From assembly GCA_020353515.1 (NCBI GenBank), contig CP070695.1, positions 3,823,908-3,887,907 of the forward strand: a stretch of 64,000 nucleotides of DNA, given 5' to 3'. The stretch is from Candidatus Heimdallarchaeota archaeon. Its GTDB lineage: Archaea; Asgardarchaeota; Heimdallarchaeia; Hodarchaeales; Hodarchaeaceae. Shown piece after piece: positions 57,160 to 64,000 of the stretch (within the stretch, counting starts at the first letter, position 1; each line of letters opens with the position of its first letter). The position numbers were made by a program, and so were the translations under genes. The notes under the pieces were generated by a model. The model was given only the letters and a program-made list of their open reading frames with translations. It searched no databases and was not told where the DNA came from.

Positions 57160-57909
57160 TTATTTCGGTTTTTTTGTTTTTACCCTTGTTTTCGGGATCT
57201 TAGTTTTAATATCATTAAAAATAGGTGGGGGAATAACTTTTTTCTTTACAGGGGATTTTATATGAATTTTTGGTGGGGGTGGTTGGTTTACCACGTTTTT
57301 CTGTTTCTTTTTACCTCCCTTAGTAGAATATTGGATTGAGGGTGTTTTTGGGATTTTATCTTTAAGTATTGGTGGGAGTTGGTTAATAACATTTTTTTGT
57401 CCTTTTTTTGCACCCATAGTAGGAGATTGGATTATGGTGTCTTGGGGCATTTTTTTGTGATTTTTCGGGGGCGGAGGCTTGTTTATTGTATCAGATAATT
57501 CTTTTTTTGAATGAACTACTCCTGTTGAACGAGGAATCGTACCGATTTTATAAACTTGTTTAGGGGTAGGAGTTTTCTTATTAAATTGTGACTTTTTTTG
57601 AACATTTTTTGGAATTAATCCTATATTCGTGGGAGATTTGGTTTCGTAAGGAAGAGAATTATTTATTGGAGGAGAAACATTTGAGTCAATAGACTCTTTT
57701 TTAGTTTGGTCAGAACTACCATATTTTGAGGGTAGTTTTATTCCATCCTTTGGAATTCTTCCTCTCGCCTTTGGGGGAGGGAGTTCAAATGATTTACCAT
57801 TAAAACTGGTTGGTGTCTTTTGTTTGATCTCTTGCACTCTTAAACTCACTGGAATTTTACTTTTGATATTATCTCTAGGCTTTTTCTTACGAATCTTATG
57901 TCTGGCCAA
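57160..57909 (-). CDS. Lys/Pro-rich, basic, probably disordered protein
   Basis: 249 aa dominated by K/P/S/T/Q/N with several PPP tracts; TTG start. Confidence 0.65.
   Translation of the reverse strand: MARHKIRKKKPRDNIKSKIPVSLRVQEIKQKTPTSFNGKSFELPPPKARGRIPKDGIKLPSKYGSSDQTKKESIDSNVSPPINNSLPYETKSPTNIGLIPKNVQKKSQFNKKTPTPKQVYKIGTIPRSTGVVHSKKELSDTINKPPPPKNHKKMPQDTIIQSPTMGAKKGQKNVINQLPPILKDKIPKTPSIQYSTKGGKKKQKNVVNQPPPPKIHIKSPVKKKVIPPPIFNDIKTKIPKTRVKTKKPK
57274..57432 (-). repeat. Intragenic imperfect repeat, 32-aa period
   Basis: IQSPTMGAKKGQKNVINQLPP (57370-57432) vs IQYSTKGGKKKQKNVVNQPPP (57274-57336). Confidence 0.7.
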
Positions 57910-58012: not shown

Positions 58013-58597
58013 TTACCTACTAAGTGAAAATCCTATTCCTGAAAAGAGAAAGAATAAACCATAGAGAACTCCAATTAGATCAGTAGCAAATAATCCAGTT
58101 AATAAGAATAAAATACCAAACACAAAAAAAGTGAATAGTGCCGTCCATTCGGCAGACGGCCCTCTCTCAGACTGGGAGGTTAATCTAATAAATTTGTATC
58201 GTGTGAAACTTCGGATTAAAAGGGCTATCGATACAGCAAGATAAGGAAATGCCAAGATTGAGGCAAGGGTTATTTGTAGCTGAATAAAATTCTCTGATGG
58301 TATAATCTCAATATTAAATGTTAACAATGCTGCTTGTCCAGGAGGAAAAAACGGACTAGCCAGTAAAACGCATAACGGAATGATATTTGCCAATGAAAAG
58401 AAGTATATTTCATTTAAAGTAGCTTTTACGTCTATATAGTATAATAGTCTTAAGAAATAGAAAATTGTGATCGTAGTATAGAATGTTAAAAATATCAGAC
58501 TTAATGCAATATTATCCTCATCTCTAATGAAAAAAAAGATACTTGCTGCAAGACCCATGAGGAAAACAAAATAGGCAATTGAATGTCGTGAAACGAT
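58013..58597 (-). CDS. Polytopic membrane protein, apparent paralog of the TM domain of the upstream RING protein (possible ATC start at 58597; first ATG at 58558)
   Basis: GGAGGT lies 7 nt before an in-frame ATC; colinear motif matches to 58603-59760 (see findings). Confidence 0.7.
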   Translation of the reverse strand: MVSRHSIAYFVFLMGLAASIFFFIRDEDNIALSLIFLTFYTTITIFYFLRLLYYIDVKATLNEIYFFSLANIIPLCVLLASPFFPPGQAALLTFNIEIIPSENFIQLQITLASILAFPYLAVSIALLIRSFTRYKFIRLTSQSERGPSAEWTALFTFFVFGILFLLTGLFATDLIGVLYGLFFLFSGIGFSLSR

Positions 58598-58602
58598 CCT
58601 GA

Positions 58603-59760
58603 TTACCTCCAGCGGCTATTTAAATGATTATTTTGATACATTTTAATTAATTTCTGATAACTTTTCCCAGAAAGCCGATACATTTTCTCTGTTGAAATTT
58701 CTTTATTACAACGGGAGCAGATATTCGCTACACTCAACCATTTCTCTAGTTCATGGGAATGTGCTGGATGTCCGCAATGGGGGCATATAACAACTCGCTT
58801 ATTAGCCTCTGTAGGAAATTCATAGCAGAAAATGCAGCGAAAATCATCATCTGTTAAGTGTTGACCTATAGGTATGAGTTTTGAAAGAATAGCTGGAGGT
58901 ATTTTCTCTATACGGGTTATATTTACCCCTGTGTCTATTCCTGGAACAATATTCATTGTTGATTGAGATGAGGCTCGTTCCCTGTTCAATATTTCACGTG
59001 AACTTGGTCGTACTGCAGTTGGTAACGAATTGAAAGAGGATTGTGGCTGTCTACTTGATTGTGAAGATGTTTGAGGTGCTCTAGTTCGATTTAACTGCCT
59101 AGGCAATGATCTTTGCGTTGCCCCACGAATGGGTATTCGACGGATTGGTACTAATATGACCTTTAATACATAATGCTGTACAAATAGAATAGAACTAATA
59201 GAAATAAACCCTAATCCACTTAGTTCTATGGATCCTGTCTGGATCCAGTAGAAACTTAAACTTAAAAACATCCCAACGTTATATAGAATAATTAATTCAT
59301 TCTGATACTTCTTTCTAGAGATGAATATTAATGGATAAAGACCAGAATAATATCTTCGGATGAGTAATAAAAGAAAAATGAAGGGTGGTAAAACAAAAAC
59401 TACGCTAAATAGATTTAGAAACAAAAAAAATCTATCTATATTGAGAAAATTAATATCAAGTGTCATTTCAAGAATATATGCTTGAAGAATTCCATCTTCT
59501 CCTAGTGATGCATATTGAGCGAGGAATGTTCCTCCTAAAGCAATCAACGAAGGAATTAAGATGAATACTGCAGATGCAATTGGTGCATTAAAACGTTGAA
59601 AGTATTGCCACTCTTCAATAAATTTGATTGATAGTACGATTACTGAAGTGATATAAAGGATGGTTAGAGCGACTTCTGTCTGTTGTTCTGTAATTAATGT
59701 GAGTACTGCAAAAACGAATCCTACAGCACAAATGGAAAGATATACATTCCGCCTAACCAA
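58603..59760 (-). CDS. Membrane-anchored RING-type E3 ligase candidate
   Basis: ~6-7 N-terminal TM helices, S/Q/R-rich linker, CIFC-x13-CPHC-GHPA-HSHE-LEKW-x6-CSRC. Confidence 0.8.
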   Translation of the reverse strand: MVRRNVYLSICAVGFVFAVLTLITEQQTEVALTILYITSVIVLSIKFIEEWQYFQRFNAPIASAVFILIPSLIALGGTFLAQYASLGEDGILQAYILEMTLDINFLNIDRFFLFLNLFSVVFVLPPFIFLLLLIRRYYSGLYPLIFISRKKYQNELIILYNVGMFLSLSFYWIQTGSIELSGLGFISISSILFVQHYVLKVILVPIRRIPIRGATQRSLPRQLNRTRAPQTSSQSSRQPQSSFNSLPTAVRPSSREILNRERASSQSTMNIVPGIDTGVNITRIEKIPPAILSKLIPIGQHLTDDDFRCIFCYEFPTEANKRVVICPHCGHPAHSHELEKWLSVANICSRCNKEISTEKMYRLSGKSYQKLIKMYQNNHLNSRWR

Positions 59761-59778: not shown

Positions 59779-60687
59779 CTACTTTTCATGATCATATTCT
59801 AAAAACATACGGCCTTTCTCCTCTGTAAGAGGAAGGAGCGTATTTATCAATTCAGGAAGACTTCCTAAGGGACAATTCAATACCATATACTGGGGCTCTT
59901 CCCAAGTTTTCATATCTTCCTTTAATCGAAAGATTTTGAAACCATAAGAACCACTTGAAATCTTTGTAGGGTCAATAACTAAAGCAATGGGGGCAGTAAT
60001 TTGTGAATTACGTGCTCCAAGCCGTTGATACCGAACTTGAGTCTCATAATCCGTTTGACTCATGAATGCTCCGTATGAAGGATGAGAGTGATACCATCCA
60101 AGAATAAGTTGATTTTTATTATGAGATTTAATCTCATTATAAACTCTAACCATAGATTGTGGGTCATTAATTTGGGTATTCACATTTGTGCCGTGGCCAA
60201 TCGGGAAAGCATCTTCAATAACTAAACAGGCTAATGGTGTATCATTACTTTCTATATGACCTGTAAGGAGACCTATTACCTCTATCCAATTATTTTGGGG
60301 TACATCTGGATTCGCATATTTTAATGCGTGCAATGCTAATTTTATATAGGCTTTAAGATGAATTTTCACTCGTGAAGGCTCTGATTCGGGATTTAAGTTG
60401 TTCAAACTTAACTCAACACTTTTTGTGGCATCTAGGGCTTTAATTTGTTCCTTTTTTTTGATAAAATCAGATTTAGGAATATTTTTTTCATCTGAATTTG
60501 AAGAAATTAAATAAGAGGGATTTATTTGTATTTCTTTGCCTGTAAAACTTTCAAAATCTGCATTAGGTTTATATTTGAATGCAGGAAATTTTAAAGTAAA
60601 AGAGAAAGTCTCTGGATCAAAGGTTAGAGCAAGATCTCTAAGCAGCAATTCAAAAATATTTTGTAGATCCTTTTTCTCTTTTGACAT
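59779..60687 (-). CDS. JAMM/MPN+ metalloprotease (Rpn11/CSN5-like deconjugase)
   Basis: EVIGLL...GWYHSHPSYGAFMSQTD (E...HxH-x7-S-x2-D), ALVIDP. Confidence 0.92.
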   Translation of the reverse strand: MSKEKKDLQNIFELLLRDLALTFDPETFSFTLKFPAFKYKPNADFESFTGKEIQINPSYLISSNSDEKNIPKSDFIKKKEQIKALDATKSVELSLNNLNPESEPSRVKIHLKAYIKLALHALKYANPDVPQNNWIEVIGLLTGHIESNDTPLACLVIEDAFPIGHGTNVNTQINDPQSMVRVYNEIKSHNKNQLILGWYHSHPSYGAFMSQTDYETQVRYQRLGARNSQITAPIALVIDPTKISSGSYGFKIFRLKEDMKTWEEPQYMVLNCPLGSLPELINTLLPLTEEKGRMFLEYDHEK

Positions 60688-60718: not shown

Positions 60719-61246
60719 TCACCACTTCTTATTCGCATATTTTTTTGTAATCTTGCGAGCTTTTGTCATGAAATTCTTTCTATTGCTCAAATATTCTTGA
60801 GCTGCCTTTCTATTGAATACATCATGCGGATTAGTGTAAGCAGTATCAATATTGAACATCGCAAGGATTGAATAAATTATTGTTCCAATATTCTTTGATG
60901 GTGACCAACCATCTGGTCTACCAATTAGGTCAGGATCAACCAGTGCTAAACAAATGTTCCGTTTTCCCTTATACTCATCAGGTTTCGGCCAGAAGTTCGG
61001 ATGCCAGATTGGTGTATGCAAACGAACGAATGGGGGAGAATAGGGATAATTTGGGCCAAATTTGATTTCTAGCTTAAATTTTCCTTTCTCATATGGAGTC
61101 CCTTTAGGCCCCTCTAGAAGGACTGCAAGGTGTTCGACCGATTTTTTCCCACCTGGAAATGCTTTAACTTGTTTTATGGTTTTTTGTTTGTATAACTTCT
61201 TTAATTGATTATAATCATCAGCAATCCTCTTAATACGTATGGACAT
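60719..61246 (-). CDS. Ubiquitin-conjugating enzyme E2
   Basis: GPKGTPYEKGKF, YPYSPP, IWHPN...ICL, WSP. Confidence 0.95.
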   Translation of the reverse strand: MSIRIKRIADDYNQLKKLYKQKTIKQVKAFPGGKKSVEHLAVLLEGPKGTPYEKGKFKLEIKFGPNYPYSPPFVRLHTPIWHPNFWPKPDEYKGKRNICLALVDPDLIGRPDGWSPSKNIGTIIYSILAMFNIDTAYTNPHDVFNRKAAQEYLSNRKNFMTKARKITKKYANKKW

Positions 61247-61263: not shown

Positions 61264-62508
61264 TTATATGAATTTCAAGCTTAAATAGATCTGAGTGCCA
61301 TCTTCAAATCCTGTGACTAAGATAGTCTCATAATTACGAAGTTTAGCCTCAGAGAGGTTTAATTTCCAATCGATCTCATTGACCTCAGAAGTGTCAATTC
61401 GAAAGATGCTTGGGGGGAAATCTGGGTCGATTAGGTATTTTTTTTCTTGTGCCAATTTTGTTACAATTTTCTTCAATAGAAAGTTTGGCTTGACTTTTAT
61501 TCTATAGAGAGGAGCACGAGTATTTCCACACATGGTGCAATTTGAATTCCTCGGTTTTTCCATCTCATAGAATTTCCCAGTCAGTCCATTATAGATCACA
61601 TAATTTAATTGAAGAGAACCTAACTTCTTTTCATTTTTGGGGGTGTGTATATGGTGAAGGATTTTCACTGCTTCTTGAGATTGTAATGAGGCCATTACAC
61701 AATTAATCGTGATTACTGTGGCTTCATGATTATCAACTATTTGAATAACCTGATCTGTTGAGAATGGTTGAGACTCTGGAAAATAGGCTTTGAGTAAGGT
61801 ATTTGCATATTCCCTAACTGCACTGATTTCTTTTGGTTTCAATATATCAACAGGCCGTCCATGATCCTGTTCAAATTGTAATTGCCCTTTTAAGATACAA
61901 TGTGCTGGTTTTCGTGGCACACCAACTAACGTACAAGCACCTAACTGATCCTGTTCACGTTCAGTTAATGGATCACATTCTAAACAAGCGTTACTGAAGG
62001 GAAACATGCAATAGACATGACCATTGTAAGCTGCTGTTCCTGCATCAATTAAGGGTTTATGATTGTGAACAGCTCTTCGATTTAGTTCGGATCGGGCCTC
62101 AATTGAGTCTAAACCCGCGATAAAAAGATCTGCTTCTTGATAAAGACGGGGAGGAAGGTTTTGCAAAGCACAATTATATGCTTCAATTGAAATAAAAGGA
62201 TTCATTTCTCGAAGTCGTTTAGCAGCAAATTCTGCCTTAGACACTCCTTCTGGTGCTCCAATAAATAATACTTGTCGATTAAGGTTAGAATATTCAACTG
62301 TATCAAGATCAACAAGAATTAATTTTCCAACACTGACCATTGCCAAGTTTTTTGCAACTTCAACCCCTAATCCACCAATTCCGACAATTAAAACAGTACT
62401 TCGCTTTAAAGTTTCTTGTTTCCATCCTGGAAGGCGAAATTGACGATCAAAACGTCTTTTTTCTTCATCAGTGAATTCTTCACTTGTGAAATCTGATACA
62501 TTTGACAT
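61264..62508 (-). CDS. Ubl-activating enzyme E1 (UBA3/UBA2-like, with catalytic Cys domain and C-terminal ubiquitin-fold-like domain)
   Basis: RFDRQ, GIGGLG, DLDTVEYSNLNRQ, GLDSIEAR, CLEC, ACTLVGVPRKPAHC, CTMC. Confidence 0.93.
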   Translation of the reverse strand: MSNVSDFTSEEFTDEEKRRFDRQFRLPGWKQETLKRSTVLIVGIGGLGVEVAKNLAMVSVGKLILVDLDTVEYSNLNRQVLFIGAPEGVSKAEFAAKRLREMNPFISIEAYNCALQNLPPRLYQEADLFIAGLDSIEARSELNRRAVHNHKPLIDAGTAAYNGHVYCMFPFSNACLECDPLTEREQDQLGACTLVGVPRKPAHCILKGQLQFEQDHGRPVDILKPKEISAVREYANTLLKAYFPESQPFSTDQVIQIVDNHEATVITINCVMASLQSQEAVKILHHIHTPKNEKKLGSLQLNYVIYNGLTGKFYEMEKPRNSNCTMCGNTRAPLYRIKVKPNFLLKKIVTKLAQEKKYLIDPDFPPSIFRIDTSEVNEIDWKLNLSEAKLRNYETILVTGFEDGTQIYLSLKFI

Positions 62509-62520
62509 TCTTACTCAACT

Positions 62521-62868
62521 TCAGTAGTAGATTCCTGCTGTTGAAACAGGGATAATCAAGCATTCTAAACCATTTTCAATATCATAATTAGATAGCACAT
62601 CATCACTATCTAGAGTACGGCCACCGATAGAAATATGAAAATCCTGTGGATAAAGACCAAATATTCCTCCAAGTGTTTCTTTTAATTCCGAAACACCCAT
62701 TTCAGGATTGACAGAGAGTTTTTCAATTTTTTCACCTGGTCCTATTGTAGATCTAAAGAATAGGGTTATTTGAGTCCCACTTGGTACTTTTGTTCTCATT
62801 TGAGTTTCTAGAATCTCTTCTTCCTCTTCTTCGATTTCCAATTCATCAAAATCCTCATTTTCAGACAT
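62521..62868 (-). CDS. Ubiquitin-like protein 2 (acidic N-tail; ends STAG-IYY, pro-form)
   Basis: GRTLD-x4-LSNY beta-grasp motif; GGAG upstream of ATG 62868 gives 115 aa, the same length as its paralog. Confidence 0.88.
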   Translation of the reverse strand: MSENEDFDELEIEEEEEEILETQMRTKVPSGTQITLFFRSTIGPGEKIEKLSVNPEMGVSELKETLGGIFGLYPQDFHISIGGRTLDSDDVLSNYDIENGLECLIIPVSTAGIYY

Positions 62869-63044
62869 TGAATAATACTCCATTTCCATTCTTTTTGTTG
62901 GAAGCATTTTACAATATTTTATCTGGTAAAAGAGCTTTATAGACTGACTCTTTACTGGTGAATAATTATCCGTTTCAATCATTTTAATTATTCCCAATTA
63001 CTGTTTGAGTACTTTTTCGAGGAATTTTAATAATGAATATTGGG

Positions 63045-63239
63045 TCAGATACAAATTTCGTTTGATTGAATTACTCCAAGAGACTGAAGAATCCAAAGAT
63101 TTGCTCGGATATAATAATCGGTTGCTGAGATTATGATATCTAAATCATTACTAGACCCATGATGGATTCGCATCTTTTTCTTCGCATTTTCACGTTCATA
63201 CATTGCTTCAACTATAGATTTGACTAAACTTTCAATCAT
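63045..63239 (-). CDS. Small hypothetical protein between the two Ubl genes
   Basis: 64-aa ORF on the operon strand filling the gap; no recognisable motif. Confidence 0.4.
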   Translation of the reverse strand: MIESLVKSIVEAMYERENAKKKMRIHHGSSNDLDIIISATDYYIRANLWILQSLGVIQSNEICI

Positions 63240-63326: not shown

Positions 63327-63674
63327 TCATCCTGCTGTACTATGGGGAATCAATAGAATTTCGTCACCATTATCAACGCCATAGTCGCCGATAGGAGCAG
63401 ATTCATCTAAGGTGCGACCAGCATGACTTAAGTGAAAATCATTGGGATTCAAGCCAAATATGTTAGCTAAGGTGTCTCTGACATCTCTAACTGGTGTATT
63501 TTCACCTACACTAAGTTTTTCGGTTCGTTCAGGCCCAACGGTAGATTTAAAAAATACATTCTTTTTTGGTCCTGCGGTAATATTTGTTATAGGAGTCTTA
63601 GATTGTGTAGGGGTTTTAGATTGAATTGTTGTCTGTTCTTCTACATCAAAGTCTAAATCTTCAAAATCACTCAT
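63327..63674 (-). CDS. Ubiquitin-like protein 1 (acidic N-tail; ends STAG-stop, mature form)
   Basis: HAGRTLDESAPIGDYGV aligns with ubiquitin FAGKQLEDGRTLSDYNI; exposed terminal Gly. Confidence 0.9.
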   Translation of the reverse strand: MSDFEDLDFDVEEQTTIQSKTPTQSKTPITNITAGPKKNVFFKSTVGPERTEKLSVGENTPVRDVRDTLANIFGLNPNDFHLSHAGRTLDESAPIGDYGVDNGDEILLIPHSTAG

Positions 63675-63850: not shown

Positions 63851-64000
63851 TTGCCACAAAATGCTCAAAATATTAAAATATCAAATCGTGCGTGGGAACT
63901 TCTACGATGGGCAAAATTTGAGCTTGATGCAAAGTCTTACAGTGATGTTATCATCTTAATGAATAGTAGAATAAAAAATCGGTCAAAAAGTCTTGAAAAA
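63851..64000 (+). CDS. 3'-partial ribbon-helix-helix-like protein divergent from the Ubl operon (not in the ORF track)
   Basis: GAGGT RBS, then TTG: MPQNAQNIKISNRAWELLRWAKFELDAKSYSDVIILM..., open to the window end. Confidence 0.65.
   Translation, partial: MPQNAQNIKISNRAWELLRWAKFELDAKSYSDVIILMNSRIKNRSKSLEK

Follow-up and report, generated by a model that had tools for sequence, protein, structure and literature searches.

Why does a membrane-bound RING protein in an archaeal ubiquitin operon come with a second, smaller membrane protein that has no RING? The question arises from a window of 64,000 nucleotides (nt), the whole stretch of DNA analysed here, of Candidatus Heimdallarchaeota archaeon (Hodarchaeales; assembly GCA_020353515.1, contig CP070695.1, positions 3,823,908-3,887,907 of the forward strand), whose genome is one 4.94-Mb contig. 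A minus-strand operon in this window holds, in order, two ubiquitin-like (Ubl) genes, an E1, an E2, a JAB gene, a membrane RING gene, a small membrane gene and a Lys/Pro-rich gene. An earlier reading of the letters alone (the original prediction) held that the small protein is a RING-less duplicate of the RING protein's transmembrane domain, and that the two form a heterodimer of one catalytic and one non-catalytic subunit. We find that the 194-residue small protein is a genuine, ancient and very distant RING-less paralog of residues 1-206 of the RING protein, and the pairing of the two genes across one Asgard class suggests a two-subunit membrane ubiquitin ligase. The features on which this argument turns are given here in window coordinates.

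58603..59760, minus strand: membrane RING protein, 385 residues, with a six-helix membrane domain, a disordered linker and a C-terminal RING-like finger; stop codon TAA at 58603-58605
59143..59760, minus strand: the duplicated part of the RING protein, a membrane domain of six helices (residues 1-206), from the AlphaFold2 (AF2) model and hhalign to the small family
58897..59142, minus strand: Ser/Thr/Arg/Pro/Gln-rich disordered linker of the RING protein, residues ~207-288
58606..58896, minus strand: RING-like zinc finger domain, residues ~289-385 of the RING protein
58606..58610, minus strand: GGAGG, a ribosome-binding-like site within the last codons of the RING gene, as read from the sequence
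58013..58597, minus strand: RING-less paralog, a membrane protein of 194 residues and six helices; probable start codon ATC at 58597-58595, stop codon at 58013-58015

A distant paralog of the RING protein's membrane domain

A BLASTP search of the small protein against the RING protein yields no significant alignment (E 1.6), and the manual alignment behind the original prediction would therefore lack significance by itself. The relationship emerges when families are compared as profiles, the check that the original prediction had itself proposed. With 44 small proteins set against 38 RING proteins, hhalign aligns columns 2-132 with columns 3-140, starting from residue 1 of both (probability 83.7%, E 8e-6). 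Diversifying the profiles with members from the class's other families (six small and five RING proteins, loci L014-L019) raises the score to 63, with a probability of 96% and an E of 3.8e-9, and a global hhalign alignment across all six helices covers 195 columns (97%, E 1.6e-10). The small-family profile also matches a 42-row alignment of the membrane domain with a probability of 94.3%. That the score climbs as the profiles diversify is the behaviour expected under true homology.

Two hydrophobic six-helix proteins may nevertheless resemble each other by chance, and the blank BLASTP search, a sequence identity of 17-18% between the small protein and the RING membrane domain, and the misplacement of two of the five manually aligned blocks would all fit such an explanation. 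Hydrophobic composition, which the original prediction had named as the result that would undo it, does not account for the match. Reversed-profile controls score 13-16, and column shuffles that leave the helices in place, made within windows of 5, 8 or 15 columns, reach a mean of 15-19 (16-19 for the windows of 5-8), with a standard deviation (SD) of 3-4.5 and a maximum of 30.6. As an empirical null, we compared the small-family profile with each open reading frame (ORF) in this genome with four or more hydrophobic segments (n=553). The RING protein, entered as a single sequence, is the top non-self match, with a score of 34.0 over 107 colinear columns, whereas the other 551 multi-helix ORFs have a mean of 14.5 (SD 2.5) and a maximum of 23.1. 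The shuffle, reversal and whole-genome nulls fall 8-14 SD under the real score.

Plain searches with hidden Markov models (HMMs) agree weakly, yet in both directions. The small-family HMM matches RING proteins colinearly in genome G235 (E 3.4e-4 per genome) and at several further loci, and in the present genome the RING protein is its best non-self match among 3777 ORFs (E 0.02); a narrow version of this HMM finds no second copy of the small gene in its own genome. Conversely, the RING-membrane-domain HMM reaches about 2e-5 against the small proteins in G280 and G102, in matches that span positions 2-187.

Conserved positions coincide as well. A59 and F66, the sole invariant columns of the RING membrane domain, fall on the invariant A59 and F66 of the small family, and P118/P125, L126/L133, Y134/Y142 and I137/I145 are further coinciding columns. 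An acidic residue at the turn between helices 5 and 6 is kept in both families (D173/E179). Of the five colinear blocks on which the original prediction had relied, the first (residues 2-7), second (28-36) and fourth (around P118/P125 to F131/Y138) stand in the register of the profile alignment. The third and fifth do not: the two 'IP' stretches of the third are set four residues apart by the profiles, and the fifth is three residues off, in a region reached by the low-confidence global alignment only.

The AF2 models point the same way. The small-protein model (predicted local distance difference test, pLDDT, 82.8; predicted template-modelling score, pTM, 0.77) has helices at 2-24, 28-57 and 63-83, a hairpin of strands 90-98 and 103-110, and helices at 111-133, 147-170 and 174-192. 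In the RING protein (pLDDT 72), the membrane domain has helices at 2-23, 28-57 and 64-80, a hairpin of strands 95-101 and 111-116, and helices at 117-138, 150-175 and 180-202, followed by a linker with a pLDDT below 50 (203-280) and then a folded finger. Compared by element order, both models thus run three helices, a beta-hairpin and three helices, and the order and lengths of the elements agree. Given this shared hairpin-containing topology, the coinciding invariant columns, the rise in score with diversification and the far lower scores of every control, chance similarity is largely refuted and we consider it extremely improbable. The duplication that the original prediction had proposed is thus borne out by the profile comparison, its controls and the model topology.

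The beta-hairpin lies directly before helix 4 in both proteins (small protein 90-110; RING protein 95-116), in a loop predicted to be outside the cell, and would be unexpected in a plain helical bundle. It may be an extracellular contact site.

What the fold is related to

Foldseek against the PDB returned nothing for the small-protein model at E <= 0.001; for the RING-protein model it returned RING/U-box domains only and no match to the membrane part. A search of the ESM Atlas by shape gave template-modelling (TM) scores of at most 0.36, and a search by features gave nothing informative besides what is likely the family's own cluster. Profile searches of the PDB produced no match for the small family, and Pfam has no family for the small protein. 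A match of DppC to the RING membrane domain in a PDB profile search (E 1.8) was set aside as chance. When 1.84 billion representatives were searched with the small-family profile, 23 matches came back, all of at most 239 residues, so that no fused form of the small and RING proteins is known; neither tandem nor longer forms were present among these representatives, nor were RING proteins matched at a library-wide E <= 0.001. The pair defines a six-helix membrane fold without a detectable relative in the PDB or among ESM Atlas representatives.

A probable ATC start for the small gene

Standard ORF calling begins the small gene at ATG 58558 and yields 181 residues, leaving only about 10 hydrophobic residues ahead of a charged stretch. 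Reading in frame from ATC 58597, as the original prediction had done, gives 194 residues. This extension is correct, as judged from four observations. Most of the 71 homologs in the databases are 194-197 residues long, cover the query end to end and share its N-terminal motif. The codon at 58597 is ATG in 11 other genomes of the genus, and ATC in this genome and its closest relative (G253) only. The 13 extra codons differ between these two genomes by two synonymous changes and no replacements. Finally, the GGAGG site lies 8 nt upstream of the ATC, which itself follows the RING stop codon after a gap of 5 nt.

We infer from this that ATC serves as the start codon of the small gene. The segment 58595-58610 (minus strand) is a candidate non-AUG start or termination-reinitiation site, and the RING gene and the small gene look translationally coupled. 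Because the codon is ATC instead of ATG, gene callers shorten the small protein to 181 residues (database entries P0003 and P0004). The RING gene itself starts with TTG, and its relatives show Met at the same position.

The two genes are inherited and lost together

In a survey of 301 sampled Asgard genomes, the small family was found in 50, all in four families of one class. The RING membrane domain is matched strongly in 48 genomes of the same four families, with four weak matches in another class. Both genes occur together in 46 genomes, the small gene alone in four, the RING gene alone in two, and neither in about 249. Each of the four small-only genomes either has a completeness of 68-88% or carries the gene at the end of a contig; for the two RING-only genomes completeness is 70% and 89%. 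The small gene is absent from three genomes of the class that consist of a single contig (completeness 70-93%): G026 and G074 have neither gene, and G244 (70% complete) has only a truncated match to the RING membrane domain (positions 1-104). In about 40 genomes the two genes are adjacent on the same strand. Within one Asgard class, then, both genes are inherited, lost and, for the most part, transcribed together.

The small protein is also the more conserved of the two: 79 of its 194 columns are at least 80% conserved, while the RING membrane domain has 41 such columns out of 215. This points to a function of its own and not to the decay of a duplicate.

Behind the weak matches in the other class stand membrane RING proteins of full length (the full model gives E 4.7e-43). 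They lie in an operon of the same build that has no twin close by, as at L022:2706-6965 in genome G077, where the next gene is unrelated and on the opposite strand. This makes the membrane RING either older than its twin or more widespread.

A proposed two-subunit membrane ligase

We propose that the small protein and the RING protein assemble in the cytoplasmic membrane as a hetero-oligomeric, ubiquitin-like ligase, and we put the probability of this at roughly one half. The proposal follows from the tight linkage of the genes, their co-occurrence and co-absence over four families, the 5-nt gap with its ribosome-binding site, and the strong purifying selection on the RING-less copy. On the same evidence, the heterodimer of a catalytic and a non-catalytic subunit put forward in the original prediction is a reasonable but only partly supported reading. 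A heterodimer prediction for the RING-protein membrane domain and the small protein, run with alignments and without controls, scored 0.00 and weighs neither way on binding.

In such a complex, the RING subunit would recruit the operon's charged E2 on a flexible tether of about 80 residues, which corresponds to a linker that varies in length among relatives and is gap-rich and unconserved in the alignment of the RING family (56 database proteins). With a cytoplasmic RING and six helices, the N and C termini and the 2-3 and 4-5 loops of both proteins would therefore lie inside the cell, and the Arg and Lys residues of the small protein fall in exactly the stretches predicted to be inside. Two stretches of the small protein are strictly conserved, YYxxxKATLNE after helix 2 and RSFTRYxFIRLTSQSxxGPSAE between helices 4 and 5, and under the predicted topology both would therefore face the cytoplasm. 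They may form a surface on which a substrate or cofactor docks, and the evident candidate for this is the product of the adjacent gene:

57160..57909, minus strand: Lys/Pro-rich low-complexity protein, an ORF that carries I/V/L-P-K/R repeats and a FELPPP-type motif; its place beside the small gene is conserved

The JAB protease would then process or remove the tag.

It is this Lys/Pro-rich neighbour that gives weight to our main alternative, in which the small protein acts independently in the membrane, receiving or anchoring the Lys/Pro-rich protein or some other product of the operon, and shares with the RING protein a pathway only. In about 18 of 21 loci, among them the loci whose RING gene lies elsewhere, a Lys/Pro-rich ORF with a FELPPP-type motif adjoins the small gene, and the small gene, where unlinked from the RING gene, stays beside the Lys/Pro-rich and ribbon-helix-helix (RHH)-like genes. 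The small family also has invariant loops of its own that are absent from the RING membrane domain. Against this, about 40 of 46 genomes have the small gene next to the RING gene, only 5 nt away, co-loss is near-perfect, and paralogous membrane domains often pair. We regard an independent receptor as unlikely, if well worth keeping in mind. The Lys/Pro-rich protein itself is a candidate substrate or partner.

Another possibility is that the RING protein is homo-oligomeric and that the RING-less copy joins the oligomer as a decoy, damping or redirecting ligase activity. Both proteins share the membrane domain while the twin has no catalytic module, and a membrane RING without a twin exists in another class, so that the twin is an add-on. 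However, tight translational coupling predicts roughly equal amounts of the two proteins, a better fit to a subunit than to a regulator, and conservation is higher in the small protein than in the domain that it would imitate, with invariant loops that are new and not copied. A decoy therefore seems improbable to us.

Several observations weigh against the two-subunit ligase. No result shows contact between the small protein and the RING protein, and the membrane topology of both is a predicted one. Three genomes of one family (G036, G163 and G169) hold the two genes on different contigs or loci, and in G235 the genes are two apart and convergent on opposite strands; in G235 and G036 the small gene adjoins the Lys/Pro-rich and RHH-like genes and not the RING gene. 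Another Asgard class has an operon of Ubl, E1, E2, JAB and membrane RING genes with no twin nearby, and none of its 68 genomes holds a small-family match, so the RING protein can work without the small protein. The 1.84 billion representatives contain neither a fused nor a tandem form of the two proteins. Finally, the finger departs from the canonical RING, having an invariant Glu in place of one zinc ligand and scoring under the Pfam thresholds.

The RING finger

The structure search with the model places the C-terminal domain in the RING/U-box cross-brace fold. Its invariant residues are C309, C312, C326, C329, H334, E337, W341, C348 and C351, in the pattern C-x2-C-x13-C-x2-C-x4-H-x2-E-x3-W-x6-C-x2-C. 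Seven invariant Cys and His residues are thus joined by a likewise invariant Glu, E337, in the sixth-ligand position and then by a conserved Trp, an arrangement that is unusual for a RING-H2-like finger. Judged by its spacing, the finger appears to be RING-H2-like with Glu replacing the sixth ligand. Pfam RING models score it at 14-15.5 bits, against cut-offs of about 27.

Relation to known ligases

The other genes of the operon, upstream of the membrane pair, are as follows.

59779..60687, minus strand: JAB/MPN metalloprotease (Pfam JAB, E 1.5e-15)
60719..61246, minus strand: E2-like UBC enzyme (Pfam UQ_con, E 5.6e-27)
61264..62508, minus strand: E1-like ThiF-family activating enzyme (Pfam ThiF, E 2.8e-53)
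62521-62997, minus strand: ubiquitin-like gene (Pfam ubiquitin, 31.2 bits, above the cut-off)
63327-63674, minus strand: other ubiquitin-like gene (Pfam ubiquitin, 20 bits)

With a Ubl, a ThiF-type E1, a UBC-type E2 and a JAB/MPN protein in one cluster, this is an archaeal operon-type ubiquitylation system. The operon of Caldiarchaeum subterraneum likewise encodes ubiquitin, an E1-like and an E2-like enzyme, a small RING finger protein and an Rpn11-like JAB protein (PMC5654768, PMC6043591). Its ubiquitylation reaction has been reconstituted (PMC5654768), with Rpn11 treated in PMC6043591, as have E1/E2/RING cascades from Asgard archaea (bioRxiv 10.1101/2023.07.25.550441). The present locus resembles these operons in combining Ubl, ThiF-type E1, UBC-type E2, JAB/MPN protease and RING-type finger. 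It is unlike them in that their RING proteins are small and soluble, whereas here the operon's only RING forms the tail of a membrane protein with six helices, and that protein is accompanied by a RING-less copy of its membrane domain. Our search of the literature on Asgard archaea found no paper on a six-helix membrane RING with a RING-less twin. While archaeal ubiquitin operons are known, then, the RING ligases studied in them are small and soluble, and here the only ligase is built into the membrane and comes with a strongly conserved RING-less copy.

Among eukaryotic ligases, Hrd1 with Der1 and the Dsc and Asi complexes are multi-pass membrane RING ligases with non-catalytic multi-pass partners. 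The archaeal pair is like them in outline, with a polytopic protein that carries a cytoplasmic C-terminal RING-H2-like finger standing beside a RING-less polytopic partner. The comparison with Hrd1 and Der1 made in the original prediction holds for this layout only; PDB profile searches gave no sequence relation. The matches listed for the small-protein model by Foldseek, VIA and Atlas include no derlin or rhomboid chain, and we see nothing convincing that links the fold to Hrd1 or the derlins.

There are two bolder readings. The pair might form a protein-conducting or lipid-thinning groove, an ERAD (endoplasmic reticulum-associated degradation)-like half-channel such as that of Hrd1-Der1, and extract membrane or exported proteins for tagging. 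An HRD1 match does appear, but it stands alongside designed and soluble helical bundles with the same Z, where such scores are noise; Hrd1 and Der1 are not paralogs of each other; and no endoplasmic reticulum is known from these archaea. A half-channel is thus very improbable. We also judge it quite improbable that the pair is a prokaryotic forerunner of ERAD-type ligase complexes, that is, a pseudo-symmetric heterodimer of the paralogous six-helix domains in which a membrane groove or gate would present membrane or exported proteins to the tethered RING, the E2 and the Ubl.

The pairs BRCA1-BARD1 and RING1B-BMI1 offer a different comparison. Each joins an active and an inactive partner; both partners retain their RING and use it to dimerise. 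The archaeal case shares the idea of setting a non-catalytic paralog beside a catalytic subunit, but the archaeal partner lost, or never had, the linker and the RING, and it is the membrane domains that would have to mediate any pairing.

If the small protein and the RING protein do form one enzyme, they would provide a simple, expressible prokaryotic model of membrane-bound ubiquitylation. The Heimdall-group (Hodarchaeales-type) Asgard lineage is counted among the closest archaeal relatives of eukaryotes, and a two-subunit membrane ligase, if real, would bear on the origins of eukaryotic membrane protein quality control and sorting.

Other genes of the locus

Between the two Ubl genes lies a 64-residue ORF (63045-63239, minus strand) without a Pfam match. 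The Lys/Pro-rich protein has a combined Lys and Pro content of 31-37%, belongs to no Pfam family, and is seen in the window (57160-57909, minus strand) as well as at L014:3699-4643 and L020:6317-6994. An RHH-like protein of 123-127 residues recurs by the cluster in distant lineages (L014:3308-3691 and L020:6963-7334); in the window it occupies 63851-64000 on the plus strand, where it runs off the end, and is divergent from the first Ubl gene. It has an N-terminal antitoxin/RHH-like stretch, which Pfam matches to VAPB_antitox at E 0.018 only, and is a possible regulator of the operon.
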